The notes beneath the pieces were generated by a model. It was not told the origin of the DNA. It saw only the letters and a program-made list of their open reading frames with translations, and ran no database searches. The position numbers were made by a program, and so were the translations under genes. A stretch of DNA of 64,000 nucleotides from the NCBI GenBank assembly GCA_010093605.1, contig MU004181.1:3782001-3846000 (forward strand), read 5' to 3'. This document shows positions 1,433 to 60,048 of this stretch, in pieces. Positions within the stretch are counted from its first letter, which is position 1. Every line of letters begins with the position of its first letter. Source of the stretch: Lophium mytilinum (Eukaryota).

Positions 1433-2415
1433 CTTGATATAGCCTTCCTGTTCCTTATTTTGAAAGTTGAGCTGGCGGAGGAGCAGAGACGAAGCTTGTG
1501 GTGAAATTGAGACGATGTCTAAAGCGGAAGTGGAGCTACGGTGGACGATGAGAGCCAACCTTCTTTTCAGTAGAACTAGGCGCGCCCCTCCGTGCCCTTC
1601 TGCAACTCAGACGTCAGATCTAACTCCGCACAAAGCCATACCGGGCGTCCTTTAATCTCAGAATACGTGAGGAGATGAGAGCTAATAACAAGCGTATCAT
1701 CCGCAATCTCCGTCTCGCAGAGGATTATGACAAAGTTCCTTGGTATGCGTGCAATGCACCCCTTCAGTCAGGTCAGTTTTGACCCATTCAGAACACACGA
1801 AACAGTGTCGATTCTAAGAACAGCATCTTTGACATCTGGACATGTTTGTAGGCCCCCAAAATGGCTAGCACAGGGGCCAAAGTCAGCCGCCCTGCAGCTC
1901 GCTCCTCAAGCTCACGATGGCTTAGGCCGCCCTTCAGCCGCACATGCTAACAGCACCGGCTTCACGCCACTATATGAGAGGATCTCCGGTCCCCTTCCTT
2001 TCCCCACCTCTTCCTCAATTCTTCTTGGCTCTATGAACATAGCTTTCGCGAGTTGGTAACACTGTGGCGCTGCCTATCTTTCTTGTGGCTTGACTCATCC
2101 CTTACAGCGAATTCCTGTCGAGGTGAGTCAAGATTGTTGCTGGATTGTTGCCTGGACATTTGATGACGCGGGAGTAGTATAAAGAGTCTACGATTTCTCA
2201 AATGTTGAAATCAGAAAGAGAAGATCAATCGAACAACATTCGTCTCCGTTCGCATATCCTCAATACGACCAATTGAACCTTCGAGAGTGCTCTCATCCTC
2301 AATCTACTACCCCAGAACCGTCCATTATACTTTCAATAGTCCTTGTGTCCTCAGTCTACTGCACATACTCGCCACTTAAGCTTGAAGAGACAGTCCTGTC
2401 ATCCCCAAAGCAATC

Positions 2416-5400
2416 ATGGAATCCACCGAGAAAGAGATATACGATCTCCTCATCCTTGTAGACGCAACTTATTCTATGGTACGTGAGGTCCCAGTACACA
2501 TATTACAATCCTTTGGTTTCATCATTCCTGGAGCGTGTTGTAACATCGAAACGCGGTTGTGCACCTATGCTTGCCGGGCATGCAAAAGGTGGCACTCGTA
2601 TTCATACTTAGAAGCCGCGATGGATGCGTACTCATGTATGGCACTGCCTGGGGTCCTTCAATGCATTTTCAGAGTCCTAAATGGGATATAAACTGTTCAT
2701 TTTGGGCCATTCGAAAAGTCGTTGAAGCACTTCAAGCAGTGGCAGACAGATGTACAGGAGACAGCATGCTTGAAGATCGCGCCACTCTTTTCATCCCAGC
2801 GTGATACATGAGCCGCTTCGGGCACTATTTTGCCAGAAGATCTAGTATCTTTTCTTGACTCCCGTCCCCCTCACGTTCCCCCTGCCGCTCTTTGCGAAAA
2901 TATGCTAACATGCGTCCTACTACCTCCAGAGCGATTACCTCGAATCATTGCAATTGTCTTTGCCAAAGGTCATTGCCATCTCTACCCTGACCGATTGCTT
3001 TGCTCGCATTGGTCTCTTAGCGTACCGCGATTACTGTGATACAAAGCTGCTAGAGTGGTCAGGCTGGCTTGAGCCTTCGGCAAGTGACAAAGAATCTCAG
3101 CCAGACCTCATCTCGCTAGCAAAGTCACTAGACCCTCTCGGGGGTGGCGACTATGCTGAAGCGACCAAGACCGGGTTGGCGAAGGCGTACGAGGTGATGA
3201 GACCAGAGGCGACGACCATTATTCTTGTCTACACGGATGCTCCCCCGCACTCGCTGGTCAATGGATCCATGACTGAGGAATGGTCTAATCTTGGCAAAGA
3301 GAAGAAGGCGCTCAGCGATCCGGCGTCATATGGCGGATATGGTCCTCTGTTCAATGACTGGGTATCTGCGAGCAAGACCCTCCACTCTGGGGAGAAGAAG
3401 GCCCAGGTCTTCTGCATTCTGGAACCGTCGATGGCTTGGCAGTACGTCGGCCATTACAACTATCTCTCTGCCATTACTCGCGGTGCATGCCTCTATCTCA
3501 AAAACTCTAAGCCCCTCAGCATTTCAGAAGTGACTGTGGAAATGCTTCTCGCGTGGATGGGTGTCGAAAAGGCCGGAGTAAGCGGAGCACCCCAAACGCT
3601 CTCTGCGTCGCTGTCGCGATACATCGATGTTAGTGCCATCAAGAAGGCCAAGCACGAAACCGATCCCGCGGCAGATACGTACTTCGCCGCCACCAAGAAG
3701 GAGGCAGATGCCAAGAAGCTGATTATGAAGAACATCACGGAAGTCCAGCTTACCACCGAGATTCTCAAGAAACATTTGCCTAAGAAGAAGACTCCGGTAC
3801 AGGACTTTGCGAAGCGATACAATACTGACGAAGCGTACAAAGCTGTGGCTGTGGAGCATCTTACGAAGATCATCAATGAAGACGTTTCGGCTGTATCACT
3901 TAACCCGGTGTTTGGAAGCCTCTGGCGTGCGGTTTGCAACGACAGAAACAACAAAGCTCGGGATGGATTGATATCCGCATTCGGCCTCCAGGTTGAGAGG
4001 ATAGCTAATGCAGAGGAAAAAGCTCGCATGAAGACTTGGCTTGAGGAGTCTTACGATTATACAGCCGAGGTTCTAGAAGCAATTGAATCCGTTCCTAAGG
4101 AACAGCGATTCCCATGTGTTTATCTCGATCCTACGTTGGCCTTTGTTAAACCTACCCTCGATGGAGATGCCGACGTCGAAGACGAAGATGATCGCCCTAT
4201 TACTCAATTTCGTCGCGACGAACTCCTCGAAATTGGAAGGTCATGCGATTACAAGATACTTCGACGTCTCGGGAGGGTCCTCACCCGTCTCTCCTTCGTG
4301 GAATCTGCTAGTGATTTTCCAGCCCATATCGTGGGCACCAGCGACGAAGATGTTCCAAAAATTCCGATGGCGCTTGCCAGTCAAGAGCATGGGCGCAAAT
4401 TTTGGAGAATCTTACTCCATATCGTTGTCCCTGGAACGATGCTGGCGGCTCGCCCATCTGCGCTTCTAGCTGCTCTCAGTATCCGATTGGGTGTACAGCC
4501 ACTGTTCAAGGCTGCGGACACGGAGATGCTGATTTGGAAGGAAAAGTGGAACAACCTCGAGATCCCAGAGACATGGAATGTCAGCTGCCTTTCACTTCTG
4601 CTGGATGCCGACCAGGAGTATCGACAGAGAATGGGTACGGAAGGAGGCACCACTAAATCAAAGCTCTTAAAAGAGAGTGATCGAGCACTTTTCGAGCGAC
4701 TCGTCGAATACAAGATGCTGGAGCTTAATCTCAATACTCATTTGTCAGCTCTTATTGGTTGGACACCGGAAAAGACATCTGTATCTATCGGTCCCGTTGT
4801 CACTTGTCGATCCTGCAAATATCCCCGCTCCGTATCCGTCATGGGGAAGAATAGCCAATGCGGGCCATGCTCTGCACACGACTATAAGGACGCCAAGGAA
4901 AAAGAGGCCTACATCAACTGCCGAGTAACGAAATCAGACGATGAGAACACTCAGGCCTCATGGGTTGAATGTTTCAATCGTGAGTGCCGTGCTCAATACG
5001 TCGTTTACAACGTAGATGCATTGAACGTCCGTGCGAAGTGCCATTACTGTCGGGCTCCAAATATGGGCAGTGCTCCCGTGCTCGAATGCACTCAGTGTTT
5101 CAACCGCGTCATCTACCCAGAGGAATATCGCCCATCTACTTTGGCCAAAAACGACTTCAAATGCTACGCGTGCGTATCCAAGCGCACTACGATTGTCGCT
5201 GTAGAGACCAATGCGAACAAAATCTGCCAAGAAACCGACAAATCCTTCTGGCTTCTCAAGAACACGTCAAATAAGATTGCCGATCCCTTTAATGGGCGCT
5301 CTCTTTTTCATACCATCACTGCTTCTGGTACCGCAGACTTTGCTAAGCTTGTCACTCTTTTCCCGAGCCAGCCTTATGCCCAGCTTAGACTCAAGGGCAA

Positions 5401-6202
5401 GCTAATCCACAACGCACCAGACCTAGTCAAGCATCTTCAATCTTTCATCTCTCGCCGCCGCACTGAATCAGTCCCGTGCTCTCTATGCTTCAGCAACTTC
5501 CGCCACACCGCGCTTCGCCCCGCATGTGGCCGCTCAGGGTGTACTCAACGCATCTGTGGCGACTGCCTCCAGTCATGGTACGGTCTCAATGGCTCAGGCC
5601 GCATCATCAACACCGCCGCTCTGTTCTGCCCATTCTGCCGACGTGCTCCGGCTGCAAGGACGCTCAATGCCTATGGCCAGGGCATCCACGCCGTTGGTGG
5701 GCTGAAGACGGCAGTCGAGGAGCGCGGGCAATGGATCCACGCCTGGTGCGTTGAATGCGGCCACGCACGCCGGTATGTGGAGAGAGTATGCGCGCGAGGC
5801 GCACCTGCCGAAGTAAAAGATTGGCAGTGTGAAGACTGCATCCGCTACATCGAAGCGATGAATTCCGCAAACGAGAACGCCATCAACGAGCTTCTAGAGC
5901 AGCAAGATCTTGAGGATGACGAGCACCATCGTACTCGGCGCCGCGGCGGTAATCGTGCTCAGAGAGCTATTCGGGAGGGATACACGCGCCACACGATAGG
6001 GGGATCGAGGGTGGTTATCAAGAAGTGCCCAAAGTGTGGGGTGGACAGCCAGAAGGACAGTGGGTGCAATCATGTCATGTGTCCGGTCCGAGGCTGCCAA
6101 ACGCATTGGTGCTGGGAGTGTGGGGGGGCGTTTGATGAGGACGAGATTTATGATCATATGGCGGAGGATCATGATGGGATGTTTGGGCATTATGATGATT
6201 AA
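2416..6202 (+). CDS. VWA domain + multiple Zn-ribbon + RING/IBR-like/Rcat (RBR/ariadne-type) E3 ligase-like protein, ~1111 aa, mimivirus R811-like architecture
   Basis: Exon 1 2416-2478 (MESTEKEIYDLLILVDATYSM), intron 2479-2929 (GTACGT..GCTAAC..CAG), exon 2 2930-6202 in frame. VWA motifs DATYS, GGGDYAE, TDAPPH; many CxxC pairs; RING CSLC..CPFC; Rcat CPKC..GCNHVMC..HWCWEC. Confidence 0.85.
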
Positions 6203-6415
6203 GGGTGATTGAGAGCGCATTTGAGATGTATGAGAAGATTCGAAGTAGATCCGGAACGCTGGAGGTCTACAGACTCATGTCTAGTCCTTGTATCATGTTG
6301 GCATGACTGCTTGGTAGTTAGGATGCTTGAACCTACGTTAAGTTTAGCCTCCATCGACACACCCTCTCTTACAGCCCCGTCTCTCTTCCCATTCAACCTA
6401 TAAAATCCCCTCAGC

Positions 6416-6946
6416 TTACTCCCCTCCACAAAACTTTGACACCTCAAATGGCCTCGGCTGCAAAGCCAAATCCGCACTCTCCATATTCGCATTCCCAAAC
6501 TCCATCACCTCCCTCTCCAGCGCAGCCACATCATCGCACTTGAGCACCTTCTTCCCGTCCGCCTCTCCCGTAAGCTCCCCTAGCACCTTCAGGAGCCAAG
6601 TGCGGCATGTAACATCCAAGTCATTCAGCCGCTCATCGAATTGACGGATGGTCTTGTCAGCGTGCTCACGAGCAGCGAGGTCGGCGATCGTCGCGATCTG
6701 GAAGAGCCCAACGAGAAACGTTTCGTGAAAGACGCCGCGGGTGTCTTGGTGTGCGGCGATCCAGGTACCAGCGCTGCCAGTGATGTGGTACTTGGTGCCG
6801 CCGGCGTCTTTGTTGTTGTGTACGTAGAGTGCCCAGTGGAAGTTGAAGGCTTCGGGGGGCGAGGCACGGTTGAAGAGGAGCATGTAGACACCGCCGTCTT
6901 CGAGGACGTCGAGTGGGTGGGGCTTTGGTCTGGCTATGGAAGACAT
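6416..6946 (-). CDS. DUF6540-like protein with permuted papain-like His...Cys motifs, 176 aa
   Basis: Intronless ORF with FHWALYV, KYHI and TCRTW motifs, the pattern of small fungal His/His/Cys proteins. Confidence 0.65.
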   Translation of the reverse strand: MSSIARPKPHPLDVLEDGGVYMLLFNRASPPEAFNFHWALYVHNNKDAGGTKYHITGSAGTWIAAHQDTRGVFHETFLVGLFQIATIADLAAREHADKTIRQFDERLNDLDVTCRTWLLKVLGELTGEADGKKVLKCDDVAALEREVMEFGNANMESADLALQPRPFEVSKFCGGE

Positions 6947-7493
6947 AATGGAGATGAGTCCGTGGAAAGAGATGTGCTCGATTTGGAAAGGCTAGGGTTA
7001 TACTTGGAACATCGGGTGATGCTAAGACTTTTATGTGAATGACTCCCAAATTCGACCTCTCACCAAATGAAGAGTTGAACAGCATCAGATGCTATAGTAA
7101 GACTATTGGTATTCATCTACCAGAATGCACACTGCGAGACAGCACCCCGACGCCAACAGTGAGTTACCCATTGCTTGGAAAAGGGGACATATTGGCTCCA
7201 CCAAGCGGATCTAAATTATTTTTGATGATCATGTTCTGACGATACGTTGAAATGGAACAGCACAGTGTCTCGATATAGATATGTGTGGGCTTTTCTTTCT
7301 ACTGCTCACGATGATTTTCAGTATGACGATAGAGTCTAGCATTCCAAACAGCTGTGTAAACTCGCGAGACAGTGATACAGGATTGCTTACTAACTAATAA
7401 CTGGCCTGTGCACCGTCAATCTTCCCTTCAAGTCTCTCCACGCCGCTCTTACAAAGGGTACCTTTGTACCTTCGAAGTTCTTCGAGAGATAAA

Positions 7494-9992: not shown

Positions 9993-12123
9993 TTACTTGT
10001 CGTGGTGGAACTTCTCCTTCAGCTTGCCGAAGAACGATAGCCGGTTCTTCTTCTTCTGCTTCTTGTCGCTGGCGACGCTCTCCGGGGTACCGACGGCAGA
10101 GGCCTCTCCGTTCTTCTTCGGCGTCTCTGGGGTGCTCTTAGCCGCAACCTTGCTGGACTCGACGCCAGTAGTGACAACTGGGGTGCTTTCCGCCGTCGTG
10201 GGTTGCTTGGACATGGGCGAAATGTCGCGCGAATCGACTGCTTTGGGTTCTTCAACAGCGGCTTTCGGCGCTTCAACAACAGCGGCTTTCGGCGCTTCAA
10301 CAACTGCGGCTTTCGGCGCTTCAACGACTGCGGCCGCACCAGGCGCGGTTGCACTCGTCTCGGCAGTCACCGTGGGAGCGGGTTCGCCGGCTTCGTTGGT
10401 GGGCTTGATCTCTTTCAGCAGCTCCTGCTCTACTTCCTTCTTCTCTTCGACGGCTACCGGATTAGCAGCGGCCTCTGGGGCAACTTCTGCCTCTTTCTGG
10501 CTTTCGGCGACAACGGCAGGCACTTCGGGGGCAGCCTCACTGGCTGCGGCAGCTACGGCAGGAGCGGGTTCACCGGTTGCGTTGGTGGTCTTGATCTCAC
10601 TCAACAGTTCCTGCTCTACTTCCTTCTTCTCTTCGACAGCTACTGGGTTAGCAGTGGCCTCCGGTCCAACGTCCGCTTTTATCTGGCTCTCGGTGACGAC
10701 CTCAGGCACTTCGGAGGTGGTGGCAGTCGCGGCAGGCGAGCCGTTAAGGCCGAAGATACGAGCAGCAGTGTCCTTGGCCGAGTAGGTGGCTCCAGCGAAA
10801 GCAGCAGCTCCACCAGCCGCAACACCACCAGCAATGGCAGCAGCCTTCCCAATGCCAGAGGTGCTCTCGGCCGCGGGAGGCTCCTCGGGGACCTTGGCCT
10901 TCAATTCCTCTTCAACCTCCCTCTTCTCGAGCACTGCTTCGGAGTTCGCGGATGCTTCAGGGCTGAAGTTTGCCTCTTGTTGACTCTCGGTAACGACCTC
11001 TGGGACACCCTTCGGCTCCAGAGGAACTGCGCCTGCAAGCGCGGCAGTTGAGCTAAGAGGAGCGGCCGATTGGATGGTATAGCCTGGGTCTGTCTCAGCC
11101 GCTGTGCCTGCTCCCATTGGCAGGCTAGACTCCGGAATCATTGTGCCGCCGATTGGCGGGATCCCAAACATACCTCCCTTGGTCTCGCGCTCAGCCTCGG
11201 GGGTAACGACAGGACCTAGTTGCGGCGGGGCCGCGTCTGACGCTTCGTAGGACTTCTCGTCAGTCTTAGCGGTGCTTGAAATGGTGTTGGACGTCAGCGT
11301 GCTTGGATCTGGGACCTTCTCGCCAGGAGCTAGGTGAATTGGGTTGCCAGCGCCGGCAGTCGCGGGTATCGGGTTGACGCCGAACGCCTTCTCCTCAGGC
11401 TCGTCATCTTTGACAGTCGATTGTATAGTGTTGTTTGTGAGGGTGCTCGGGTCGGGCACCTTCTCGCCGGGTGCTAGGTGAACAGGGTTCCCAAGGCCTT
11501 CAGTAGCAGGTATGGGGTTCACGGAGAAAGCGTTGGGCTCCGTTGCTGGCGTCTCGGGGAACGCGCCAGGCAAATGCGAGGCCTCCTCCTTGGGAACAGC
11601 TCCAGCCATTGCAGCAGTGGATGCGGCGGGGGCGGCTGAAGAAAGGGTGTGGACAGGTGTTTCTTTGATGTCGTGTGGGAGGAGGATGTTGTTGTAGTTT
11701 GGTCCGTCGTATTCGCCGGGCGCAGTGTCGTTGGTCACCCAATTGCCGTCGACGACGAACTTGGAGCGCAGTGTCAGCGGGAGAGGGCAGGAGAGGACAG
11801 AAAGATGGTGTTGGAGGGGTGGGAAGGCAACCACGGGTCGACGACGGCAAGCAGGTTTATTTGCGGGGGTCGCGCCAGGAGAGTCAGCACCGGCGAACGA
11901 TGAAAGCACCAACCTTGTATTCGACTTTCTGCTTCGGCAGCTCGACGGTCTTCTTGAAGATGCCGTCCTCTTTCTCCAGCTTGACGCTTTGCTTCCAATC
12001 ATCGAAGGTGCCGGTGACGAACACTTCGTTAGCGTTGTGCTCCCTATAGCGGTTTTGTCAGCGCGGGTAGGCGTGGGCGGCGAGGGCACGCGATGCCTAC
12101 CAAGTAAAGGTATAGCTGCCCAT
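9993..12123 (-). CDS. CBM48 (AMPK glycogen-binding-type) domain protein, Crp1/Mdg1-like, with internal repeats
   Basis: Spliced N-terminus MGSYTFTW-EHNANEVFVTGTFDDWK...YK-FVVDGNW. Acidic repeat-rich middle; basic C-terminus KKKNRLSFFGKLKEKF. Confidence 0.85.
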
Positions 12124-13997
12124 GGTTGCGACGTGCAGTGTAGGAGGCAGGGGATGGAGGTGATGGGGGTGAGTCGGTCAGAGACAGCTGGCTTCAGTCC
12201 TCTAGTGCGCGCGCGGTGGCTGGGGATGAAGGCTAACGGAGCTTGCTGTGGCGGCGCGGTGGAGCTAGCACGCGGGCAATGCGGACAGTGAGGATGTTTG
12301 TTCGGTGAGGATGGGCCTGCGATGACGGATATGGATGCAGGGTGATGCTGGGGCTGGGACAGTGGAGCTGGAGCTTTCGTGGGGCTTTTGTGCTGTCGAA
12401 TTGAAGACGACGCCGGGCAGATCTCCGCTAGGGCGAAACCGGCCTGGCGCCCAACACCACGGGCTGGATATCGCCGTCGCGCCCTGGAGGTCCTTCGTCC
12501 ATATCAATTCATGCGCTTGTGGGCGCCGAGCAGCAATTGGTCACTGGCGGGCACACAATGGCATGCGCAAACGTGATGCCATGCTGCTTCGCCCACGAGC
12601 TGCAAACGTGTTGAGGTTGCTGCGTCATGCCGTCCGCCTGACATGCCTCGTTTCCCTAGCCTCATTGCAATGCTTCTGCGTGGGTTCGTAGCACAACAGG
12701 ACCGCCGAGGGCACTCACTAACTAACCCCACCGCTCCGTACGATACACTGCGCCCGGCTGCTGCACGAGACTCGGCGTCGTCGCTTTTGACATCGGGCTA
12801 ACTGGCTGGAGACACGGCCGCCTTGCCGTCTTGACCGCCAGTTCGCGCTCCAGGACAAGCTCGCTGGGCCGCCAAACACTGCCCTTTCCGACGAGAAGGT
12901 TGCCAGAAACAGTCCAGTCACGTCTCTTCCCGAAACCTGTCTTCGGGCCTCCCAAGCCTGACGCAGGGGCAGCTGTCTCAGACCTCAACGCTCTCGGCAC
13001 GCTTGTCTATGGCCGTGCTAGACAAGCAGTTCTCACTATCAGCTTGACTCGGCTGGCGTATGGTTCGCAGAGGCCTCGCATCGCTCAATCGGCCACCGCT
13101 CATCGGCCACCGCTCATCGCAGGACTGCTCGTCCGCGGTCGACATCGATCCCCTCTCGCAGCATGGACGGGTTTTCAAGGTCACGTTATGGCGGAGACAG
13201 CCCCGGGAGGCCACTGCGAAGCAGGCGAGGCCACCGCGCCACAGATCAGCGGGCTTTGTCGCATTCTTGGAGGCAGGGAGAGCGGCTTTCTTTGTCTGCG
13301 TACGGCGGGCGAAAGACGCGGTTCTGCAGTTTGATACACCACGAACAAGCTCATCGCGCGGAGGCCAGGCGGCTGTCCGTGGGGCGGGCGCTAGGAACGG
13401 CGGCTCCAGCTCGGGGCGATGCAGCGGGGAGAGCTTCACGGCGAGACCATGGAGCTGCCGGGCTGCGGGCTGCGCTTCTTCAAGACAGCGCGCACCCGTC
13501 TCAGACACGGCTCGACTGCGATAGCAGCACAGTTGCGACTGGCTGCGGGCGTGGTGGCATGTGTGCTCTACTTATACTGGCCGGTTTGCGGCGCTGTGCC
13601 TTGCTAACCTTGCTCTGTGACTCCTTCTCGACGCCTGCTTGCTTGCTTCTTCCTGCCTTCTAAATGTTCTAGAAAGAGCCCCGCAGCATCTCCTCGCGCC
13701 TCCACTCGTCACGTCCAGCTCGACCTCGACTCAATTGCTTGCCATCCCATCCCGTCCCTCGCCCAACCCACGCCCTATTATTTGCATTCTCTGGCACCTC
13801 AATCCCTCGCCCGCGGCCTCAATCGCCCTGCTCTGCCTGCGTGTCCATCGCTACTCGCTCTTCGTATTCGCCATTGCGTCCTCTGCCGGCCGTCACACGG
13901 CAGCAGCGTCATCCCTGCGCTTTTGGCCTCTCTCGCGAACCAACGTCAAAGGAGTGCGGGTCCACCACAACCCCTCCCCTCTCACCACCACACCTCC

Positions 13998-46272: not shown

Positions 46273-46627
46273 AGCGACTAGAATTCTACCGATCCTCATG
46301 AACTTCTCCTGTACCATTTCGACGACCGTCAACACCATACAGTCCTCAAGGGTGTAAGAGTGTGGTAAGGATAGTGGCGTGAGAAACCCTACCTTTGATG
46401 TGTTACTATTACATGCGTAGCGATGGCGAAGCGGAGTTCCTTGTAGGAGGTTTTTCTTGGCTGTTATTGGCTTCAGCTTTTGACTTGTCATAGGCCAGAT
46501 AGGTCTTGGGAATGGGCGGATGGTGGCGAACTCATAATGAAAAGCGACCAGAGTACGTTAAAAATCAGACACTGTAAACAATAAATATTTTATACAAGCT
46601 CTAAACTCCCTCAATGTGAGGGCTCAT

Positions 46628-46890
46628 TGTAAGGATTATAATAGCATAAGCGTTATATTCTTACGCGTAATAGGCTTAAAAGCCTTTAAACGGGACGAAA
46701 CTATAAGCGTTTAAACGTAATATAATAAACATTAGATAACATTATAAGAACGTTAGAGAAACGTTTTATAATGCATTAAATACTGTATATATACTCTATT
46801 ACTATTAATATAGAATAGAATACTTAAGTAATATAATTCCTATCTATCTATCTATCTATTTATTCTTCTATTAACTCTATACCTTTAATA
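46628..46890 (+). repeat. 5' LTR of the Copia element
   Basis: Starts TGTAAGG at the GC/AT boundary; ends CCTTTAATA (RIP of ..AACA) immediately before the PBS-like motif. Confidence 0.75.
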
Positions 46891-49800
46891 GGTTATAAGC
46901 CTAGATTACACTACGCAATCTACAGCTATATAAAGCACTAACAGGCAGGTTCCATCTTAAAATTAACTAGATATTAATTAAAATTATCTAAATTAAAAAA
47001 ATATTAATAAGAATTATCTAAATTAACTAAATATTAGATAAAAACAACGCTATTTACTATCTTATTTACTATTACTAGTATATAAACCTACTATACTACT
47101 ATATAAGTAGTTTTAAGCTTAAAATAAAGCTAAAATAGCTAAAAATAAAGCTAAAATTAAAGAAGAGGACAAAGTTATTAACTATAAACCCGCTATATAA
47201 TAGCTAGAATGTAATCTAGAATTATAAATCTATTACAAATAAAATTAGACTAAAGAAATTTATATTTACTATTATAAAGCTTCTATAAGCTTATATTATA
47301 TTATAAACTACGCAATTAACCTTCTAACCTCTATTATCTATTACATATTAAATCTAGATACTCTAGATTAAATTATAACCTTTTATCCTATTATCTTATC
47401 TAACATAAGATAAAGAAATTAATTAAAAATTAAAATATTTCTCTTTCTATCTATCTATCTATTTATTAAATACATAGATATATAGAATCCATCTATCTAT
47501 CTATTCACTAAATACATAGATAGATAGAAATCTATCTATTTAAATAAAAATCTATAGATATATAGAAATCTATCTATTTATCTATTTATCTATCTATCTA
47601 TTTGCCTAACAGGCTATCTATCTATCTATTTAATCTAAAATAGATAAAATTAGTATTACTAAGCTAGTTAGTTAATTTAACTATAAAGTTTAGGCTCTAA
47701 GAGTATAATCTCTCTTAGTAGAAAAAAGTTATAGTAATGCTATTAGTAGTACTACTCCTATTCCTATTAATAAGGAAAACAATATAAAAGCATTAGCCAC
47801 TATTAGGCTTACTATAGAGGACGGTCCTCTATTATAATTATAGTATTCTACTACTATAATAGAAGCTTAGAAGCTACTAAAAAAGCTATATAGCTCTAAG
47901 GGCTTTAGTTCTAAATTTCTTATTTATAAGGAACTATTTAATACTATTTTATCTAAGTTTTTAACTATAGAAGACTACTTAAATAAGATAAAATAGTTAA
48001 TAGATTAATTAAAAGTAAAAAAGCTTAAATTACTAAATTAAGTTATTATAGCTTAGGTTCTAAATAACCTAATAGACCCCTATAACGGCTTTATAACTAT
48101 AGTTACGCAATCCTATAGGGAAAATTTATCTAATATTAAACTAGATAATTTATTCTCTAATTTAATAGATAAAGTAAGACAACAGAAGTCTAAAGAGCAC
48201 GAAACGGCTCTATTTAATAGAACTAAAAAGTTCTTACTAAAAAAGAATAGAGTAGAAAAAATAAGATATTATAAGAAGTATAAAGCAGCTATGCACTTTA
48301 TAAAAGATTATTTCTATCTATTTCCTAAAAAAGCTCTAAAATAGTTTAGAATAAAGGAATACTTTAAACCACTAAAAGATAATAAGGAAGAATCCTTACT
48401 TATAGAAGAATCTAACCCTAATAATTAGGGAGATTTCGATATAGATCTAGATGCAGCTAAAGTAAAGGTATTTCTAGCATTCTATTATACCCCTAATAAT
48501 AAAGCTAATTATATATTAGACTCCGGGAGCATAAGCTATATAATAGTAGATAGAAATCTATTTACTAGTTATAAGGAGCAAGCTATTATATTAAATTAGG
48601 GAGAAAATAAAACTATAACTATAGAAGGTATAGGAAATGTATAATTAAAACTAAATAGAAATATATTTATACTAGAAAAGTGCCTTTTTATACCTAACTT
48701 TAGATATAATCTAATATCTATAAGTAAACTAGATTCTATAGGAATAAACATTACATTTAAGAATAAAATAGCTATTATATATAAAAAGAATAATATACTA
48801 GCAATAGCATCGCTTAAAAACTTGTTATACTATATAAATATAGAAAATACAACACTTTTTATAAACTAAATACATAAATAGATAGATAAAAGCAATTTAA
48901 TAAATATATATATAGATAGAAATAATCTATCTATTTAGCACTAAAGAATGGGCTATATAAGCTCTAGAAAGCTTAGTATACTATTAGGTATAAATATAAA
49001 AGAACCTATATAATATAAAGCCTATATAAAAGCTAAAATAATAAAAAATAAAAGAAGTAAAGAAATAATACTAAAAACGGTAATTCCTTTATAAAAAGTC
49101 TCTTTAGATTTAGCAGGGCCTATAAATCTATCTAGTTTAAGGGGTAATAAATACATTATCTTCTTTATAGATACAGCTTTAAGATATATAGAATATAAAC
49201 TATTAAAATCTAAAGATAAAGCTTATAACGCCTTTTTAGAATATAAAGCTAAGGCTAAAAATATAAATACAGGAGATAAAAGAAAAATATAAATTTTTAA
49301 AACTAATAATAGGGGAGAATATATAAATAAGAAGTTTAAAATAACTCTTTTAAAAATAGGTATAACCTATTAATTCTTAAGCCCCTATACGCCGGAACAA
49401 AACGGTCTAGTAGAGCAAATTAACTTAACTATATTTAATATAGTAAGGGCTCTATTATATATAGCTAATTTACCTTTTAACCTATAGAAAGAAGCTGTAA
49501 ATGCGGCCGTATATATATATAATAGAACGCCGCACTCTAGCTTAAAAGATAAAACGCTATTTAAGCTATATTATAAAAGAAAAGCTAAAATAGATAATAT
49601 AAAAATCTTTAGCTCTACAGCTTATTATAAGGTTAAAACGCAAATAACTAAATTAGAACTAAGAGCTAAAAAGGCTATAATATTAGGCTATAGTTTAAAT
49701 GCGTATAGATTATTAGATCTAGAAACTAATAAGATCTTCTAGGCAAGAGATATAACTATAATAGAAAGCTTTCTAAATATAAAGAATAAAGTAAATAAAA

Positions 49801-50496
49801 AGGAAAGCTCTATAGAATATACTATAAAACCACTAAAAGAACGTAGAAATATAGATAATACTATAATAAGTAGTAATAATACTATTAGAGATAAAAGTAG
49901 TACTATTATAGATAAAAGCTTATCTAAAGATAAATTAGCTATAAAACTATCTAAAAATCTATCTATTTAAAGATATATATAAAATCTAAATTTAATAAAT
50001 AGATATATAGATAAAAATTAATTATTAAATATATTTATAGATAGAAACTAAACTTAATTATCTATAAATATATATATAGATAATCTATCTAAAGATAAAT
50101 TAGCCTTTATTATTAATAATAATAATAAGCTAAATATATATAAATAAGCTATAGAATCTCTATATAATAATAAATAGAAAGAAGCTATATAAATAGAAAT
50201 AGACTAGCTTAATAAGTAAAATACCTAGAAGTTAGTAGACTTACTAGTAAATAGAAATGCGTTAAAAGAATACTAGGTTTATAAAATTAAAACTAATATA
50301 GATAATAATATATCTAAATATAAGGTAAGATAGATAGTAAAAGGTTTTAGCTAAATCTATAGCGTAGATTATAAAGAAACCTTTACTAATATCTGCTATC
50401 TAGAAGTATATAGGCTATTACTTATATTAGCTACTTATTATAACTAGGAAATAATATAATAGGACTTTAAAAATGCATTTACGTATATAGACTTAG
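46628..50496 (+). mobile_element. RIP-degenerated Ty1/Copia LTR retrotransposon (5' part; interrupted in RT)
   Basis: LTR 46628-46890 then PBS-like GGTTATAAGCC. Protease ILDSGS at ~48515, integrase SPYTPEQNG at ~49380, RT relics (..VKGFS*IYSVDYKETF..DFKNAF) at 50175-50490. Domain order PR-INT-RT. Confidence 0.9.
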
Positions 50497-52160
50497 TATA
50501 AGAAACGCGAGCGTATAGTATAGATATAGAGTATAGGCGTATTAAGTTATTAAAGATAAGTTTATATTATAAAGTATATTAAGTATAAGGCTCTATATAA
50601 TAAAACTATATAGGGTGTATATATACTAGCTAGTATATATATACTAGAAATATATATATACTTAATAGCTATATTTCTTATAGAAGCCCCTATAAAGAAA
50701 GTTACTATTTTAGTAACTATGCTACCCGCCCCTAGAGAAAGAAAAAGAGAGACTAAAGTAAGTATATATATAGAATATATATATTAAGAATATATATATT
50801 AAAGAGTAATTAAGCCTTAGTAACTAGCTCTAGGTAGTTAAGCTAGAGTAATTAGCTTAGCTTTAGCTTCTTAAGAATATTACTAGTAATATCTATAGCT
50901 CTATACTTCTTATTTATAGCTTTAAGGGCCTACTAGTATTTAATATTAACTAGTAAAGGTATAGATATATTTTACTTTAGTTATAGTATTACTATACCTT
51001 TTATACTTATAGCTGGTAGTATTATCTTTAGTAGTATTACTATAGTAGCTTTAGTAGGCTTTAATAGTATTAGCGTGCTAGCTTATAGTATAGAGGGCGT
51101 TAGCGCTATAGTAGCTTTAGCAGGCTTTAATAGTATTAGCGTGCTAGCTAATAGTATAGAGGGTGTTAGCGCTAAGAATACTATAGGTATCTTAGTAGTT
51201 ACTAATATAGATATAGGTACTACCTTTATAGTATATATACTTACTTACTAGGTACTATTATTTATTAGTAAGAGATAAATCTATCTATCTAGCGCTATAA
51301 GAATTACTAGTAGAGGCTCTCTTTTCTTTTTTAGCGGCGTCTATAGTATAGTATTAGTATTTATAAGCTTTATATCTTATATAAAAGTAGTAGTATATTA
51401 GTCTTTAATAAAGTAAAAGAAGTCTAGTAGTAGATATAGGTATACCTTAGTAATTAATTTAACTATAGTATCTACTATAGTATTCTTAATAGTAATAATA
51501 TTAAGTCTACTAGCGCCTATAGCTATATTACTACTAGCGCGCCTATAGCTATAGAGGTTATTTACTCTTATCTATACTATCTAACTTATCTTAAAATATA
51601 CTATATTATAGTAGCCTATATATATATCTATAGTATCTTATAGAAGCTATATCTACTTATTATAGATTTATAGCTTATATTAGAGCTTTAAATCTACTAT
51701 TACTACTAGGTTTACTACTATCTATAGTATTTATAATAATTACTTCTAGATAGAGCTTATATATATCTTTATTAACTACTATATAGCTTTCTTATAGTTA
51801 GATTAAATATAGATAGTATACGCTACTATTTCTACTAGTATTACTATAGCTTACTTTAATAATAGTATTACTAGGGTTAGCTATATTACTATAGGCTAGG
51901 CTTTAGCGGGGGTTATCTTTACTAGAGCTATAATAGATAAAAATATCTTTCTTACTACTTATTTTATTATTACTAGCTCTATACGTATTTTATATAATTC
52001 TATATAAAAAGATTTAATAGTATTCTTATAGCTTTCTATTTAGGCCTTATATTTCTAGTAGCTATATTTAAGGCCCTAGATAGAATAGTAAGATAGAATA
52101 TATTATTTAGCTAGTAGACGCGCCTATTTACTATTAAAGGTATTAATAATAGTCTTATAC

Positions 52161-52327
52161 TATTATAAGAAGTAAGAAGTAGAGGTAAAAGATATTCTAT
52201 TAAGCTAGCTAGCAGGCGTTACCTTAAGGGGACGCCGGCGTATAGAATACTAATATCTAGCTAGGCGTATATATAAACGTCCGTTATATACTATATACTA
52301 TAGCCTACTATCTATAAAACTATAATA
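52161..52327 (-). repeat. 3' LTR of Gypsy B
   Basis: Direct repeat of 59882-60048. Confidence 0.93.
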
Positions 52328-55300
52328 ACTACCCTAAATAGAAAAAATATTATTATTCTTAATAACTATATATCTAAGCTATTCTTTCTAGATAATAGCG
52401 TTCTAAGAATAAGATAGTAAGTAATAATTAGTAGCGTAGAAGATAAATATAATAGAAAGATAGTTCTTATAGATTATAAAAGATAGTAAGCTATAAAAGG
52501 AGATAGAGTTATAGAAGTTATAGAAAATAATAGATTTATATAAGTTATAAAAGAGAATAGCTTCTTAAGCTAGTATACTATTAGCGGGTAGTAGAGTATA
52601 GATAGCTATAAAACTTTATAGGCGGCTGTAATTAGGCTATAGTAATTAGCTTATAGATAAGTAATTAAGCTATAATAGATTTCTAGAAGCTAGCTAAGAT
52701 AACTAGTTCTAATAGACGGGGGCGTATAGATAGGCGGAGGCATTATAGTTCTAGGTAATTAAGCTTATAGTAATTAAGCTATAGTAATTAATCTATAGTA
52801 ATTAAGCCCTTTAAAAAGTCTATAAGGCTTATTTTTAAGAGGGGTGCGCCTTATTATAGGTGTCTACTAAGTTAATATTAATATCTCTATAGTATATCTA
52901 TTAGTTTTTCTTAGTACTATAGCCGCGCCACTTAATAAAGTACTTAATAAACTTTTTTTTAGCTTACTCTATATAATAAACTTAGCGGCCGAGTAGCTTC
53001 TTAATATAATAGAAGGCGCTATTATTATTATTATATTTATTATTAATGGCAGGCAGCTAAGAGAGTTAACTAGCCTTATTATACTTATATAGGTCCGTCT
53101 CTAGTACTATAGTAGGCTCTAATTACTTAATAGAAATTACTAGATAGATCTTCTAGGTATCTAGAAGGTCTATTTTATACGTGTTATACTCTATAGTATA
53201 TTTAATAACTCTAGAATCTATATATTACTAGCTAAACTTCTATATTAGGCTAGAAATCTTAAAGCCCTTATTTAGATAGATATATACTAGATCTCCTAGC
53301 TATAGTATAAGCGGCTAGCGTTTAGTATTAAAGTAGATCTTTATACGCGCTATAGTAAAGGTAATAGTATTAGTAGTATTCTAGTAGAGTATATTATAGG
53401 CTTACTAAAAGCTCTAGATACCTACTTTAGAAGTTAAGAGCTATATATCTAGTAAGAATATAAATATTAGTAAAGGGCCTACTATAGATATCTAGAGTCT
53501 TAATATAGATATCTAGAGTCTTAATATAGATATCTAGAGGCTTAATATAGATATCTAGGGGGCTTATATACCTATAACTATACTAATAGCTAGTTTAGTA
53601 AGGTTATCTATAGTAATTAAGAATAGAAGGCCTTTATTAATATAGAAGCTATAGATTACCTTATTTAGAGAGATATTTATAGACTTATTCTTTATATTAT
53701 TTATAGAGTAATAAAGCGTAATAAGAAAAGCTAGCTAATTAAAACCTTCTTATAAGATATAGTAATAAATAGTAATTTCTATTATCTAATTTATATATTT
53801 AGACTAGCTATCTATTCTAGAGTAGTACGCCGTTAATATTAAAAGCCGGGTTTCTAATTATTTAAAGAGGGACTTCTAGAAGGCGCTAGTAAACTTATAG
53901 TTCTAGTCTATAATTATAGCGGCGGGTATACTCTAATTAGCTAAAAGATCTAGTATAATATCTATCTAGTTTTTAGTATTATAGATATCTTTACTAGGGC
54001 TAGCTATAGCGCGCTTACTAAACTTATATATAATAGTAACTATAGTATTAAAGCTATTATAGTTAGATAACCCTACTATAAAATTAATAGATACTATATA
54101 AAAGAGTATTAGAGGAGTCTATATAAATATAAGTAAGCTATAGAGCCTATAATAGTAGGTAGTATTAATATAATAAATAGAGTAGTAAAGAAGATAGGCT
54201 TTAAAATATCTAGAAAGCTTTCTTATATAGTATATAGCTTATATATACTTATAAGAGTATTAAAAGCCTATATATAAGTAAGTATTATAATACTTATAGA
54301 AAATATCCCCTTTTAAGGCTTTAAAAATATATAGCTATAGCCGGCCGTCTATAGTATCTCTATAATAGATAAGGTTATTATATAGAAAAAAAAAGAGTTC
54401 TAGAGTATCTATATTAGAGAGATACTATTTACTAGCTTCTAAGATAGTCTCTATAAGTAGAGTAAGTATATCCGCCTACTACTTATTAGTTATATACGCC
54501 TAGATAAATATATTATAGAAGTCTATTACTAGCTCTATAATTATTATATTAAAGGTAAATAGCTTCTCTAAGGTATCTAATATAGCTTATTCTAGATCTC
54601 TTATTATAAGACGTAATAGGGCGTTAGGTATAATATATTATTTTCTAGAATAGTAGTATATATTAAGGTAAAATTATAATAGATACTATAAGGCCTATAT
54701 AAGCCTTATATTAAGCTTATTAATAGCTAATAAAATTAATAAGGAGGCCTTTATAATACTAAGGGTGGCGGCGTAGTTAGTAATAATAATAACGGGAGCC
54801 TCTAATACCTTAATAAGATAATAGATATAATAAATAGTCTATACTATATAGGCGACTTCTAGCTTAGTTAACTAGTAATTATGCTTAGTAGCTAAGAGTA
54901 GTTTACTAAGAAATAGAATAGATTTAATCTTATTACGCTTAATATTCTTAATTAATAGTAGGTTTTCTTAAATATAATAAACTATAATACTAAAGCTATA
55001 TTTTAAGGCGTTAATATCTATATATAGCTATCTAGCTAGTTAATAGTATACTAGAAATAAAGAGTTACTAAAGGCTTATTAAATAGCCTTATATAAGTTA
55101 TAGAGCTCTATATAATTATTAACCTAGGCCTTATATATATAATTTAGGTAAGCGTATTCTATAATAGGGGCATTTATAAGAAGATAGGTTTTCTTCTTTT
55201 ATAAAAGCTTTAATAGCTAGGCGTAGTAGCCTATATACTATTATAGCTATCTAGTAAGCTTTAAATAGTACTCTAGCTTCTTTAAGAAGGTTAGAAAAGC

Positions 55301-58300
55301 TAGATTCTAGATAGTAGTAATCTTTTTAGCTACTATTATAAGGCCTAGGGCGTCTATATACTACCTTAAAAGTATTAAAAATAGATAGCCTAGATATAAC
55401 TTCTCTACCTTAAGTATAATATTTAATTCTATTAAGGTATTAAATAGCTACTATAGATAGTATAGATATTCTAGTAGTATCTTACTATAGATAACTATAT
55501 TATCTATATAGGCCTTATAAAAGGCCTATAGTTTATAATATCTAATAATCTTATTAATCTACCTTTAGATATAGATAATAGAGCTATAGAAGCCTATAAT
55601 AGCTATATTAAAATATTTTTATCTATAGTATAAAATAATAGTAAACTTCTTATAGTTATTATAACTAATAGGCTATTAATAAAAGAAGAAGGCGGCGTTT
55701 ATAGTAGATATTTAAGGGTAGCCCGCTACTAAGCTTATAAGCTTCTTCTATTTTAGTAGTAGGTAGAAGTTCTTAATAGTAACTCTATTTAGGCCGCGGA
55801 TATTAATAATAATATAGCCTTTTCTTATTAAAACTCTATTAATAGTAATAGTCCTCTATATAATAAATATAGAAAAGCTAAAATATATTAGAGCTATAGA
55901 CTACTCTATACGCCCTTATTAGTAGAGCTTATTAAACTTAGTATCTATAAGCGCCTGTTCTTACTATTTAAGAGAATAGACTTAGTAGGCTAGCTTAGTA
56001 TTATAGCTATTTACTTTATTAGTAAGTAGAATCTATAGCTACTAGTTCTTAGAAACGCTAGTAAGCTTACTATTATTAGTAAAGAGGGGTTTAAACTTAT
56101 TAATAATATTATAGATTTATATTACTATATTCTATATACTATAAATAGTAATACTAAAGGGGCTAATAGTCTTAATACCTTCTTTAAGTATTCTAGTAAG
56201 TATTAGCTACTTATTCTATATAGGGTATAAAGTTTTAACTTAACTAGTTTAGGTATTATAGCTACTAGGTAGTAGAAATGCCGGGTTTTAGCTAGTTTAG
56301 GGTTACTAAAGCGGCGCTTATTACGCGGTAAGGGCGTATTTACCGGCATTAATAGTATAGGCAGCTTTCTTAAAATAGTCTATAAGCGTGCTAAGCTTTC
56401 TATACTAGGTAACTATAAAGAGTTTCTTAATTATATTATATACTAGAATATATAATATACCGGCGTCTAGAATATAGATATATACGCCGCCTTTATTACT
56501 AAGCTTTAAAGGTAAATAAAGCTCTAGTATAAATATATAGTCTCTATCTAGAAGCTTATTATACTTATAGACCTTAAATAGAATAGGGGAGATAGAGTAT
56601 ATAGAAATAATTATTATAGCTATAGCCTATATAAAATACTAAATCTTAGTAGGTAAAGACTTACTATTTCTTATCTATACTATTATTAGAGCTTTTATAT
56701 TCTAATAGCTTACTATATATAGGCACTTATTCTTAAAGTTAATAATTACACCTTCTAGATCTAGAATATCTATACTAAGAAGTAGATTTATATATAGCTA
56801 TTTAATAATATAAGCCTTAAATATTATAATAGCTATAATAGGCTTTCTATTAAGTAGCCTAGATATATATAGGTTAATAATATAGTACTTAGTTAATAAA
56901 ACTAGGTAATTTTCAACACCTTATACTATTATTAGCTTAATTATTTTAAGCTTTATAGAGTTTCTATACTTTTTAAGAAAGTCTCTACTAATTAGGGTTA
57001 TTATATTACCTAAGTTAGGCGTAATATTATTTAAGGGGCCGTTCTTTATTAAGAATACCCTTATAATTATATAGTAATAGCCTCTAAATATAATACTAGA
57101 GCTAATCTTTAGGTTTATTACTAAGAAAAACACGTAGATAGGCTTTATAGTTAGAGGCTTATCTTCTATAGCTATTACTAGAAGGCTATAATAAGCGCTT
57201 TTAATCTCTATATAGAGTATAGTAATATATTAATAGATAGTTTCTAGTATAGGCTTTATAGCTAGCCTTCTATAAAAGGCTATAGAGGGCTTATAGTCTT
57301 TATAGAGATATTAAAATAAAGTATTATTTAATAGAAAGCTTACTATATAGGTATAATAAGTATATACTAATATAAGGCTTACTAGAGAGGTTAAGGCATT
57401 AAAGATATCTATAAATCCGGCGTTAATAAGATTAAAAGGCTTATTCTTAATATAAGGCTTCTAATAGGCGTTATTAATATATTATTTCTAGTGCTTATTA
57501 TCTATATAGCCTATTTAGGCTATAGTCTTCTTAACGCCGGCTTATATATCTACCTAATATTATTTATTCTAGGCGTTAATATTAGTATTAGCATTAATAT
57601 TAGCGTTATTTATAGCTATCTTAAATAGCTATTTACTAAAGTAGTTAGCTCTAGTAGACCTATAGCTTCTAAAGCTACTAATATTTTAAAAGAAAGGCTA
57701 AAAGGGTTATATATTACTATTTATAAGTATAAAAGGCTATTAAAAGGCTAGTAGCGCTAGTTTTAATATTACTATAGAAGCACTTTATTAATACTATAGG
57801 GTATAAGTATTATAGTTAGTATACCCGCTAAACTAATTAAAAGATAGCTATCTATAGTATTTACGGTACGGCTAGTTACTAATAGGTTAGTAGAATTATA
57901 ATAGCTAGAAAGTCTATTAAGAAGCGTAGAAGTTATACTAATCTTAAAGGGCTAATTACTAGCTATTAAAGCCTATCTAGATATAGACGCTAGCTAGGTT
58001 ATACTAGTTATTATATCTAGACTCTAATAGCTATATAAACTTATAAACCGCTATAGCTACTATAGATAGTAATATACTATTTCTAAATAAGGGGTTAATA
58101 CTATTCTAGATAAATATAAGCCTATTACTACTACCTTTAGTATTAATACTTAACGCCTTTATATTATATATTATATTATATATATATATTAATATACTAT
58201 AATAGAAGTAAGTATCTTAGAGTATATAGAAGGCTATTATTAGCTTTATAAGTAACTTAGTAAGTAGCTTCTTAAACTAGTAAATAAGGGATTTATACTA

Positions 58301-59160
58301 GCTATTAGTAAGAGCTATATATTAGAGGCCCGCCTTCTCTATATTAGTAAGAGTAGAGGTATACTAAGTAAAAGTACTTTCCCTTAAATACTAAGGTAGC
58401 TTATTTCTTATAATATCTTTAAAATAGAGCCTAGTAATATTTCTTACGCGCTTAATAAAGATATAGATATTCTTAATATATATATTATTTCTACTATAGA
58501 AGATACTATTAATAAAGTTAGCTAGAAGCTTTAACTTAAAGTAGAAAAAGCTAACTTCTTATAGTTAGAAGCCTTCTATACTACTATCTCTAGCACTAGC
58601 ACTAGTACTAGGTATACTAGAAAAACTAGGGGGGCCTAGTAGTCTAGAGGCTCTAGAGGCTATCTATACGCGTATAATAGCCGCATTAATAAGATTCTAG
58701 AGCTACTATAGCTAGGTAGTATTAAATACTATATTAGGTAATAGGTTCTAATTCTTATTATAGGTAACTTACTCTATTTAGTTTATATAGCTAGAGTTAG
58801 CTAAATATAGAGAGTTTATAATAGTAAGCTAGTATTATTTAAGCTATTATATAAAGTTTCTAATATTAGCCTATAGTATCTAGAATAAGGTTAGCTACTT
58901 TAAAAGGTATATCTAGCTCTAGTAAGAGCTAAGGGGCTACTTAGTAACTAGAAATTAAGTAAGAAAACCGCTTCTAAAGGCTATATTAAGTAACTAGCTC
59001 TAGAGTTAGCTAGAGTTAGTATACTTAAAGGTATAGAGCTAGTACCTAAGATAGATAATATTCTAAGGTAGCTCTAGGTAGATATACTATAGTAAGAAAG
59101 TATTAAAGCTACTTATACTAGATATAGAGTTTTAAAAAGCTATAGACGGGGGCGTATAGC

Positions 59161-59300
59161 TAAATATAGGCGTTAATAGCTAAATATAGATATTAATAGC
59201 TAAACGCGGGCGTTAATAGCTAAACGCGGGCGTTAATAGCTAAACGCGGGCGTTAATAGCTAAATGCAGGCATTAATAGCTAAACGCGGGCGTTAATAGC
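59161..59300. repeat. 7 x 20-bp tandem repeat (TAAACGCGGGCGTTAATAGC) in the leader of Gypsy B
   Basis: Exact 20-nt period, directly visible. Confidence 0.9.
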
Positions 59301-59881
59301 TAAAGAAGATAAGAATAAAAAAGAGATTAATAAGAGTAGAGAGAATAAAAAAGAGAAAAAGTTAATAAAAGAAAGTAGATAAAGCTTTATTAATAATATA
59401 GTTTTCTTCTAGACTATAGAACTACTTTCTTAGGGCCCTATAAGCTATATAATAGTAACTTCTAAAAGCTACTATAGACTATAGTCTAGAAGTTATTAAA
59501 AATAGTAGTTTTCTAAGAGTTATCTAAGATAGTAACTTTCTAGAACCTATTATAGACAGCAGTTTCCTAGAGGTTATTATTATTAATAGCTAAGTAGGTA
59601 TTTAGAGACGCTAATACTAGTAAGTAGACTTCTATAATATAAATATATATAACGCGGATAATAGAGAACTAGAAGATAGTTATATCTAGCCTATTAAAGC
59701 TATAGTAGATATAGACTAGTATAGAGTTATAGAGTTATAAAGCTAATACTAGTAATACTATTAACTATAGTTTCTTAAGTTCTAGTAGTACTCTAAAGGT
59801 TATAAAGAGCTATAGATCTAGTACTTATAATATATAAAGCTAGTAAGTAAGCTCTAGTAATAGTAGTACTAAGCTACTATT

Positions 59882-60048
59882 TATTATAAGAAGTAAGAAG
59901 TAGAGGTAAAAGGTATTTTATTAAGCTAGCTAGTAGGCGTTACCTTAAGGGGACGCCGGTATATAAAATACTAATATCTAGCTAGGTATATATATAAATA
60001 TTTATTATATACTATATACTATAGCCTACTATCTATAAAACTATAATA
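59882..60048 (-). repeat. 5' LTR of Gypsy B
   Basis: Direct repeat of 52161-52327. Confidence 0.93.

Follow-up and report, generated by a model that had tools for sequence, protein, structure and literature searches.

A gene on the forward strand of a 64,000-nucleotide stretch of the Lophium mytilinum genome (assembly GCA_010093605.1, contig MU004181.1, positions 3,782,001 to 3,846,000; hereafter the window) was found at window positions 2416 to 6202. Its product, of about 1100 residues, is probably an E3 ubiquitin ligase of the RING-between-RING (RBR) class and a member of the R811-type family, named after a mimivirus protein, in which a von Willebrand factor A (VWA) domain and an RBR module are found in the same chain.

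The assignment is carried first by whole-length similarity to mimivirus R811 (P0365, identified by its source name). BLASTP aligned residues 3-1090 of the protein encoded by the long second exon with residues 22-989 of R811 as a single colinear alignment at 25% identity and E 2e-90, and a full-length orthologue, P0003, aligned over its residues 5-1106 with residues 3-986 of R811 at E 3e-96. The domain order is identical from the strand bearing the metal ion-dependent adhesion site (MIDAS) to the tail of the Rcat domain, with the same invariant residues and the same Pfam families, VWA_4 and IBR_1, which score 28.1 and 38.7 bits in R811 itself. On the other hand, the R811-type viral proteins, which are encoded by giant viruses, are about 120 residues shorter, with smaller acidic inserts and no counterpart of the charged linker that precedes Rcat. 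The R811-like architecture, which a preliminary description of this DNA had proposed, is thus borne out end to end, and by this similarity the gene is classed as an orthologue in the R811-type VWA-RBR family. The features of the gene are as follows; residue numbers are those of the exon-2 protein (P0001), to which 21 is added for the full-length protein, whereas D16, T18 and S20 are already full-length numbers.

2416-2478, + strand: exon 1, 63 nt, 21 codons, with the start codon and the first VWA strand; translation MESTEKEIYDLLILVDATYSM
2461-2475, + strand: MIDAS motif DxTxS in exon 1 (D16 A T18 Y S20)
2479-2929, + strand: intron, 451 nt, with GTACGT...CTAAC...CAG signals
2930-6202, + strand: exon 2, 1090 codons and stop
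2930..3634, + strand: rest of the predicted VWA domain (from hhalign, Pfam VWA_4 in relatives and conservation)
3140-3151, + strand: GGGD, residues 71-74
3233-3250, + strand: TDAPPH, residues 102-107
3800..4759, + strand: conserved middle region, residues 291-610 (320 aa), defined by near-invariant columns
4805..5173, + strand: three four-cysteine clusters, residues 626-748 (C626/629/644/647; C681/686/704/707; C720/723/745/748), from translation and conservation
5477..5638, + strand: all-cysteine RING1, residues 850-903, C-x2-C-x12-C-x4-C-x4-C-x2-C-x20-C-x2-C
5747..5839, + strand: finger resembling an in-between-RING (IBR) domain, residues 940-970 (C940, C943, C954, C967, C970)
5855..6013, + strand: charged, variable linker from the IBR-like finger to Rcat
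6026..6172, + strand: Rcat (RING2), residues 1033-1081, from Pfam and the ARIH1/parkin alignment
6065-6067, + strand: catalytic-type Cys1046 (full-length Cys1067) of the GCNH motif, residues 1045-1048

Domain architecture and predicted activity

Conservation was followed over an alignment of 58 rows, of which 21 are from Dikarya, the window protein included; the other 37 consist of oomycete and rotifer proteins, unnamed metagenome proteins and 10 viral ones. The counts for DxTxS are over 57 rows, the window row, which lacks exon 1, being left out. The N-terminus is assigned to a VWA domain by comparison with bacterial-type VWA proteins of PF00092/PF25106 (for example P0347-P0354): hhalign of the family's first 300 residues gave a probability of 99.5% (E 1.4e-22, 170 columns), and the motifs DxTGSM, YRD, GGGDxPEA and DAPPH are held in common. 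These bacterial-type proteins share the VWA subtype, but they are devoid of the RBR module, the middle region and the cysteine clusters. Additionally, the curated VWA_4 cut-off of 27 bits is reached by R811 (28.1), P0033 (28.0) and P0066 (27.1). The D, T and S of DxTxS are each present in 56 of 57 rows, and both D74 of GGGD, a position where many VWA domains carry Thr, and D103 of TDAPPH occur in 58/58, so that the site is best described as a MIDAS-like variant with putative metal binding.

Downstream of this domain, the middle region contains 15 near-invariant columns, equal to the VWA domain, among them W332, R333, H497, G502, R508 and E547; searches of Pfam, NCBIfam, the ESM Atlas and the sequences of the PDB returned no match to it. 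The twelve cysteines of the three clusters that follow are each kept in 55-58 of the 58 relatives, and these clusters probably represent three zinc-binding modules. A poorly conserved stretch of 85 residues separates them from RING1, whose eight cysteines are present in 57-58 of 58 relatives. The five cysteines of the IBR-like finger are found in all 58, with no conserved His in that stretch, and the finger is predicted to bind one zinc ion at most. The charged linker is 11% identical with 50% gaps within Dikarya, reaches 87% gaps outside, and is missing from several orthologues such as P0007 and P0017.

The Rcat domain is the only part of the exon-2 protein that passes curated Pfam thresholds (IBR_2 34.7 bits, IBR_1 32.4 bits, cut-off 27). 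It carries the pattern of RBR Rcat domains, C-x2-C-x9-C-x-H-x2-C-x4-C-x4-C-x2-C, and aligns with ARIH1 and parkin at about 4e-7 (2e-11 for the family profile against parkin), with its GCNH placed over the GCNH of ARIH1 and with identical cysteine spacing. The parts named in the preliminary description, namely GGGD..E/DAPPH VWA motifs, three additional CxxC clusters, a RING, an atypical IBR-like finger and an Rcat with a catalytic-type GCNH, were all recovered in that order. The presence of these motifs in 55-58 of 58 relatives appears far beyond chance, and the conservation pattern reads as that of an enzyme that is active and has a functional metal site rather than of a decaying or purely structural protein. 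A catalytically dead scaffold, retaining the RBR fold for binding only, would suit the degenerate IBR and the atypical RING1; however, it is very improbable when set against the retention, from fungi to viruses, of G1045 and the catalytic-type Cys1046 in 58/58, of the following His1048 in 57/58 and of the Rcat zinc ligands in 56-58/58.

ARIH1/HHARI and parkin have in common with this protein the Rcat cysteine spacing, the GC(N)H motif and the succession of RING1, middle finger and Rcat. In comparison with them, only Rcat is detectable by sequence, RING1 is all-cysteine with unusual x4 spacings, and the IBR retains five ligands instead of eight; the Ariadne, ubiquitin-like (UBL) and RING0 domains are absent, and the VWA domain, the 320-residue region and the three cysteine clusters stand in their place. 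These departures could indicate a non-standard ligase, which would attach a UBL modifier or perform ester-linked or non-protein ubiquitination, as some RBRs do, the MIDAS holding an acidic non-protein ligand. With a reduced IBR and an atypical RING1, the choice of E2 and the geometry may indeed differ from those of model RBRs, and the middle region, with its invariant W-R, H, G, R and E and no detected relatives, adds to this reading. Nevertheless, it is considered improbable, as the sequence points to no particular alternative and Rcat, spaced identically to ARIH1, is the most canonical part of the protein.

It is already known that RBR ligases follow a RING/HECT-hybrid thioester mechanism, in which RING1 binds the ubiquitin-charged E2 (E2~Ub) and the Rcat cysteine takes ubiquitin as a thioester, and that the domains flanking this module hold the enzyme inactive pending ligand binding. 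VWA domains, in turn, generally bind an acidic side chain of a partner via a metal. For the protein described here, we infer ubiquitin as the modifier, the thioester step, the MIDAS ligand and autoinhibition. RING1 would dock E2~ubiquitin, and ubiquitin would move to the invariant Rcat Cys1046 (full-length 1067) as a thioester and then to a substrate, thioester chemistry being favored because Rcat is canonical. Since the MIDAS-like site is kept in every lineage, the VWA domain would contact a partner's acidic side chain by way of a metal ion. The VWA domain, the middle region and the three cysteine clusters would most likely operate as one metal-dependent module that binds a substrate or an activator, with the first two selecting the substrate or releasing the ligase. 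Gating of the ligase by this flanking module is proposed by analogy with other RBRs, at somewhat less than even confidence. A broader and doubtful proposal is that R811-type proteins constitute an ancient ligand-gated RBR class, in which the variant MIDAS and the 320-residue domain (invariant W-R, H..G..R and E) would restrain Rcat until a specific acidic ligand or a ubiquitin-like domain binds, and that repeated capture of the gene by giant viruses would have served to redirect ubiquitination in their hosts.

The coupling of a MIDAS-bearing VWA domain to a RING-type catalytic module in an E3 ligase has a parallel in plant RGLG1/2, which combine a VWA/copine-like domain with a RING and are set beside this family by description. 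RGLG proteins have a simple C-terminal RING and are not known to carry an Rcat cysteine, so ubiquitin would be transferred directly from the E2. A conformational change of the RGLG1 VWA domain under the control of Ca2+ is reported in PMC7155146.

Several observations weigh against the ligase assignment. RING1 lacks the usual His, its position being variable (Q in 23, S in 12, T in 7 and N in 7 of 58 rows), and the outside matches of this domain are weak, the best being the TRIM32 RING (phmmer E 0.031), while zf-RING_2 stays under its cut-off in relatives (E 0.002-0.005). The IBR is non-canonical, with five conserved cysteines against the eight ligands of C6HC; the C6HC arrangement with two zinc ions that marks a central IBR is not found, and Pfam IBR gave no match on the IBR-like finger of the exon-2 protein. 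The VWA_4 cut-off is missed both by the exon-2 protein, which scores just 14.4 bits because its first strand is missing, and by the full-length P0003 (16.3 bits). Moreover, the folds of RING1, the IBR-like finger and the zinc clusters are read from cysteine spacing alone, expression is attested by a single run guessed to be RNA, and no functional study of any family member was found in the literature searched, which included few subscription journals.

The papers recovered in that search use a transferred R811 name, with no study of the family, which agrees with its earlier description as uncharacterized. Database labels already applied to it include 'RBR-type E3 ubiquitin transferase', 'VWFA domain-containing protein' and 'R811'. 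PF26200 is precomputed for many relatives and was not among the results of the Pfam scan made here. PF00627, which we take to be the ubiquitin-associated (UBA) domain and which would then fit ubiquitin biology, is precomputed for two relatives. The gene itself is an ordinary orthologue; the family, combining a VWA domain, an unassigned domain, three cysteine clusters and an RBR with a reduced IBR, is undescribed in the literature searched. RBR ligases are a small and mechanistically special class of E3 enzymes, each studied member having its own activating ligand, and this family would bring a VWA/MIDAS module to them, together with a conserved stretch lacking detected relatives and a reduced IBR.

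The first exon and its intron

In the frame that holds exon 1 (2386..2691), position 2416 marks the first ATG to follow an in-frame stop. The long open frame of the gene (2909-6202, 1097 codons from stop to stop) contains no start codon near its beginning. GTACGT lies directly 3' of MESTEKEIYDLLILVDATYSM, the sequence CTAAC serves as branch site, the acceptor CAG ends at 2929, and joining 2478 to 2930 preserves the frame, giving 21 + 1090 = 1111 residues. The N-terminus encoded by exon 1 matches that of P0003 and of other orthologues. P0003 is the closest relative (source name Mytilinidion resinicola), is colinear with exon 2 (92% identity, 100% cover) and reads ...VDATYSMSDYLESLQ... at the exon junction; its junction peptide, MESTQKEIYDLLILVDATYSMSDYLESLQ, is the same in seven further orthologues.

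Transcript-type support was provided by one public run holding this DNA (run X1), the RNA nature of which is a guess. A contig of this run omits exactly 451 nt with GT..AG ends at a depth of 123, compared with 10.7 for the unspliced contig and 78-191 for the exon contigs; the shorter side of the spliced joint measures 29 letters. A single contig of the same run spans 2929-6400 without a joint, and therefore no further intron is seen. Additionally, the junction peptide is uninterrupted in the DNA of three of three related metagenomic loci (L014-L016; 70, 69 and 59% identity). Because orthologue peptides, the spliced contig and the intronless loci agree, the splice junction 2478/2930 is right. 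The preliminary description had placed the MIDAS DxTxS in a 63-nt first exon 451 bp upstream, with an intron at 2479-2929 and a spliced length of 1111 residues, and each of these elements held.

Since the intron is absent from all three loci (around 2444-2510), it is particular to this lineage, having been gained here or lost elsewhere. The true start of the gene is now fixed, as the MIDAS strand sits in a 63-nt exon that calls based on open reading frames (ORFs) had missed. A related observation is that database orthologues such as P0004 and P0134 begin about 20-40 residues late (95% cover, or a profile match from position 41), and this short initial stretch of coding sequence may often escape gene callers.

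The intron has some features of its own. Its 451 nt make it long for a fungal intron, it contains an imperfect 43-nt inverted repeat (2628-2670 / 2713-2755, 72%), and its fold is more stable than that of shuffled sequences (z -2.9, 100 mononucleotide shuffles). In these respects it may be akin to introner-like elements, which are reported from Dothideomycetes, and an Rfam search of the intron returned no family match. A stretch of about 33 nt (window 2722-2756) recurs in at least four other run X1 contigs, with depths up to 577, which diverge from the window beyond it, and it also matches window positions 25964-25932 on the opposite strand (82%). This stretch is a short dispersed motif.

Distribution and inheritance of the family

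A word-indexed protein search returned 502 matches at E <= 1e-3 among 7998 scored, and the best 120 of these 502 all had an E of 0, with 50-92% identity and 92-100% cover. Names are attached to roughly one in four of the matched proteins. The named genera among the best 120 of 502 belong to Dothideomycetes, Leotiomycetes, Eurotiomycetes and Lecanoromycetes, with the exception of one liverwort record. By sequence identity this record, from Calypogeia fissa, falls among the Leotiomycetes, and its DNA is probably fungal. P0009 and P0197, full-length members filed under Calypogeia fissa and a Sulfobacillus metagenome-assembled genome, look like foreign contigs of fungal, viral or protist origin.

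An exhaustive profile search over representatives gave 7822 matches at E <= 1e-3; of these, 970 passed <= 1e-10 and 481 passed <= 1e-30, and generic RBR or VWA proteins account for the weaker matches. The matches listed include Basidiomycota (Auricularia, Exidia, Botryobasidium, Athelia and Serendipita), Sordariomycetes (Trichoderma, Mariannaea and Cercophora), the oomycetes Aphanomyces and Saprolegnia, the rotifers Rotaria and Didymodactylos, the nematode Acrobeloides and protist-type records (two from EukProt and one MMETSP transcript). Among viruses, a scan of IMG/VR with patterns from the diverse alignment matched 13 loci; at eight the match is full length (21-27% identity, E 1e-43 to 2e-109), and the other five carry just a stand-alone VWA protein. 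One of the full-length viral ORFs is a protein named for Acanthamoeba polyphaga moumouvirus, and another shows 94% identity to a protein of Bandra megavirus. A viral scan based on fungal-alignment patterns yielded 214 stretches, none of which was confirmed. The stand-alone proteins lie on five giant-virus contigs (L008-L013, about 5930-7125), measure 270-398 residues and carry DxTGSM and YRD(H) with no RBR. A single peptide pattern run over 185,579 prokaryote genomes gave 13 stretches with no relative confirmed, which is weak evidence of absence.

As expected, members of the family thus turn up in fungi, protists and giant viruses. The architecture is kept end to end in filamentous fungi, oomycetes, rotifers and Mimiviridae, and the 'R811' name transferred onto eukaryotic genes has whole-length homology behind it. 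A tractable fungal orthologue is thereby available to virologists for asking what role R811 has in mimivirus.

Two quick maximum-likelihood trees (LG+G4, with SH-aLRT support only), built from 58 and 40 rows, agreed with each other. Dikarya formed one clade (support 100), in which monophyletic Basidiomycota (99-100) and monophyletic Pezizomycotina (100) were sister clades. Sordariomycetes branched first, Eurotiomycetes were found together, as were Leotiomycetes, and the window protein was sister to Mytilinidion (92% identity), with Glonium next. Dothideomycetes were not recovered as one group, the conflicting forks being weak or short. Because Dikarya form one clade and the classes roughly follow taxonomy, inheritance within fungi looks vertical.

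In view of the full-length viral homologues and of the dispersal of viral sequences over more than one clade, it might be proposed that this fungus recently took up the gene from a giant virus or a protist by horizontal transfer. However, the window protein is nested in the Pezizomycotina clade (support 100), itself sister to Basidiomycota, the GC content of the gene region (0.50-0.52) is like that of its surroundings, and identity to R811 is just 25%. Such an acquisition is contradicted by the trees as they stand and is extremely improbable.

The older history may have been different. Oomycetes (100) and rotifers (100) were each monophyletic, and viral sequences appeared in four places: the mimivirus/megavirus/moumouvirus group, L004, L006, placed beside a group of oomycetes and protists, and L003/L005/L010, the GVMAG group, joined by L007. 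When the eight viral rows were constrained to a single group and no constraint was put on unnamed rows, the cost was 45.3 log-likelihood units, with a p of 0.024 in the approximately unbiased (AU) test, a value to be read in light of a quick tree, long branches and many rows with deviant composition. Viral non-monophyly is therefore suggestive, not strong, and there may have been more than one virus-eukaryote transfer, in either direction. The earlier suggestion of exchange among fungi, protists and giant viruses thus finds no support for its fungal part, where the Dikarya clade has a support of 100, and is hinted at for its virus-eukaryote part by the four viral positions and the AU result.

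Genomic neighborhood and a possible role in defense

A role in defense or non-self surveillance had also been suggested for this gene. In that case the product would be a sensor ligase whose VWA domain recognizes a ligand from a pathogen or a virus, with ubiquitination as the immune output. VWA-containing conflict systems exist in prokaryotes, and giant-virus copies in several lineages could be decoys or counter-measures. A Naegleria gene with a transferred R811 name is reported to be among the five most up-regulated in a highly virulent isolate (PMC11682717); this is the sole mention of expression of the family in the literature searched. On the other hand, among the matches listed, full-length identity is 50-92% across Pezizomycotina classes and no named species occurs twice, the fungal tree roughly follows taxonomy, and the neighbors are housekeeping genes, for instance those for a protein kinase A (PKA) regulatory subunit, L24e, BAG and PX proteins. 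Diversifying surfaces did not come to light either, though no search was aimed at them. This pattern is unlike what would be expected of fast-evolving immune genes, an expectation rather than a test. With one copy per named species listed, a taxonomy-like tree and such neighbors, the defense suggestion found no support and is regarded as unlikely. Another article mentions a Verticillium gene located next to a polyketide synthase (PKS) cluster (PMC9495618).

The gene lies in the window together with genes for a dienelactone hydrolase, a DUF6914 protein, the PKA regulatory subunit, MYND, PX, exo/endo/phosphatase, GT90, L24e and BAG proteins. The downstream gene is convergent:

6416-6991, - strand: convergent downstream gene, 191 aa, matching DUF6914 and DUF6540

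A single contig of run X1 extends from the ligase gene past 6400 into the region of this DUF6914 gene. Farther along, an open frame of 836 codons (9996-12503, - strand; GC 0.60-0.62) is rich in Ala, Pro and Glu and contains repeated 'EVVTESQ..A.V.PEA' units, and Pfam gave no match on it. The end of the window, from about 46400 to 64000, is an AT-rich block with a GC content of 0.24-0.28, TpA/ApT of 1.6-1.9 and (CpA+TpG)/(ApC+GpT) of 0.05-0.18, and it probably consists of degraded repeats with a strong signature of mutation of the repeat-induced point mutation (RIP) type.

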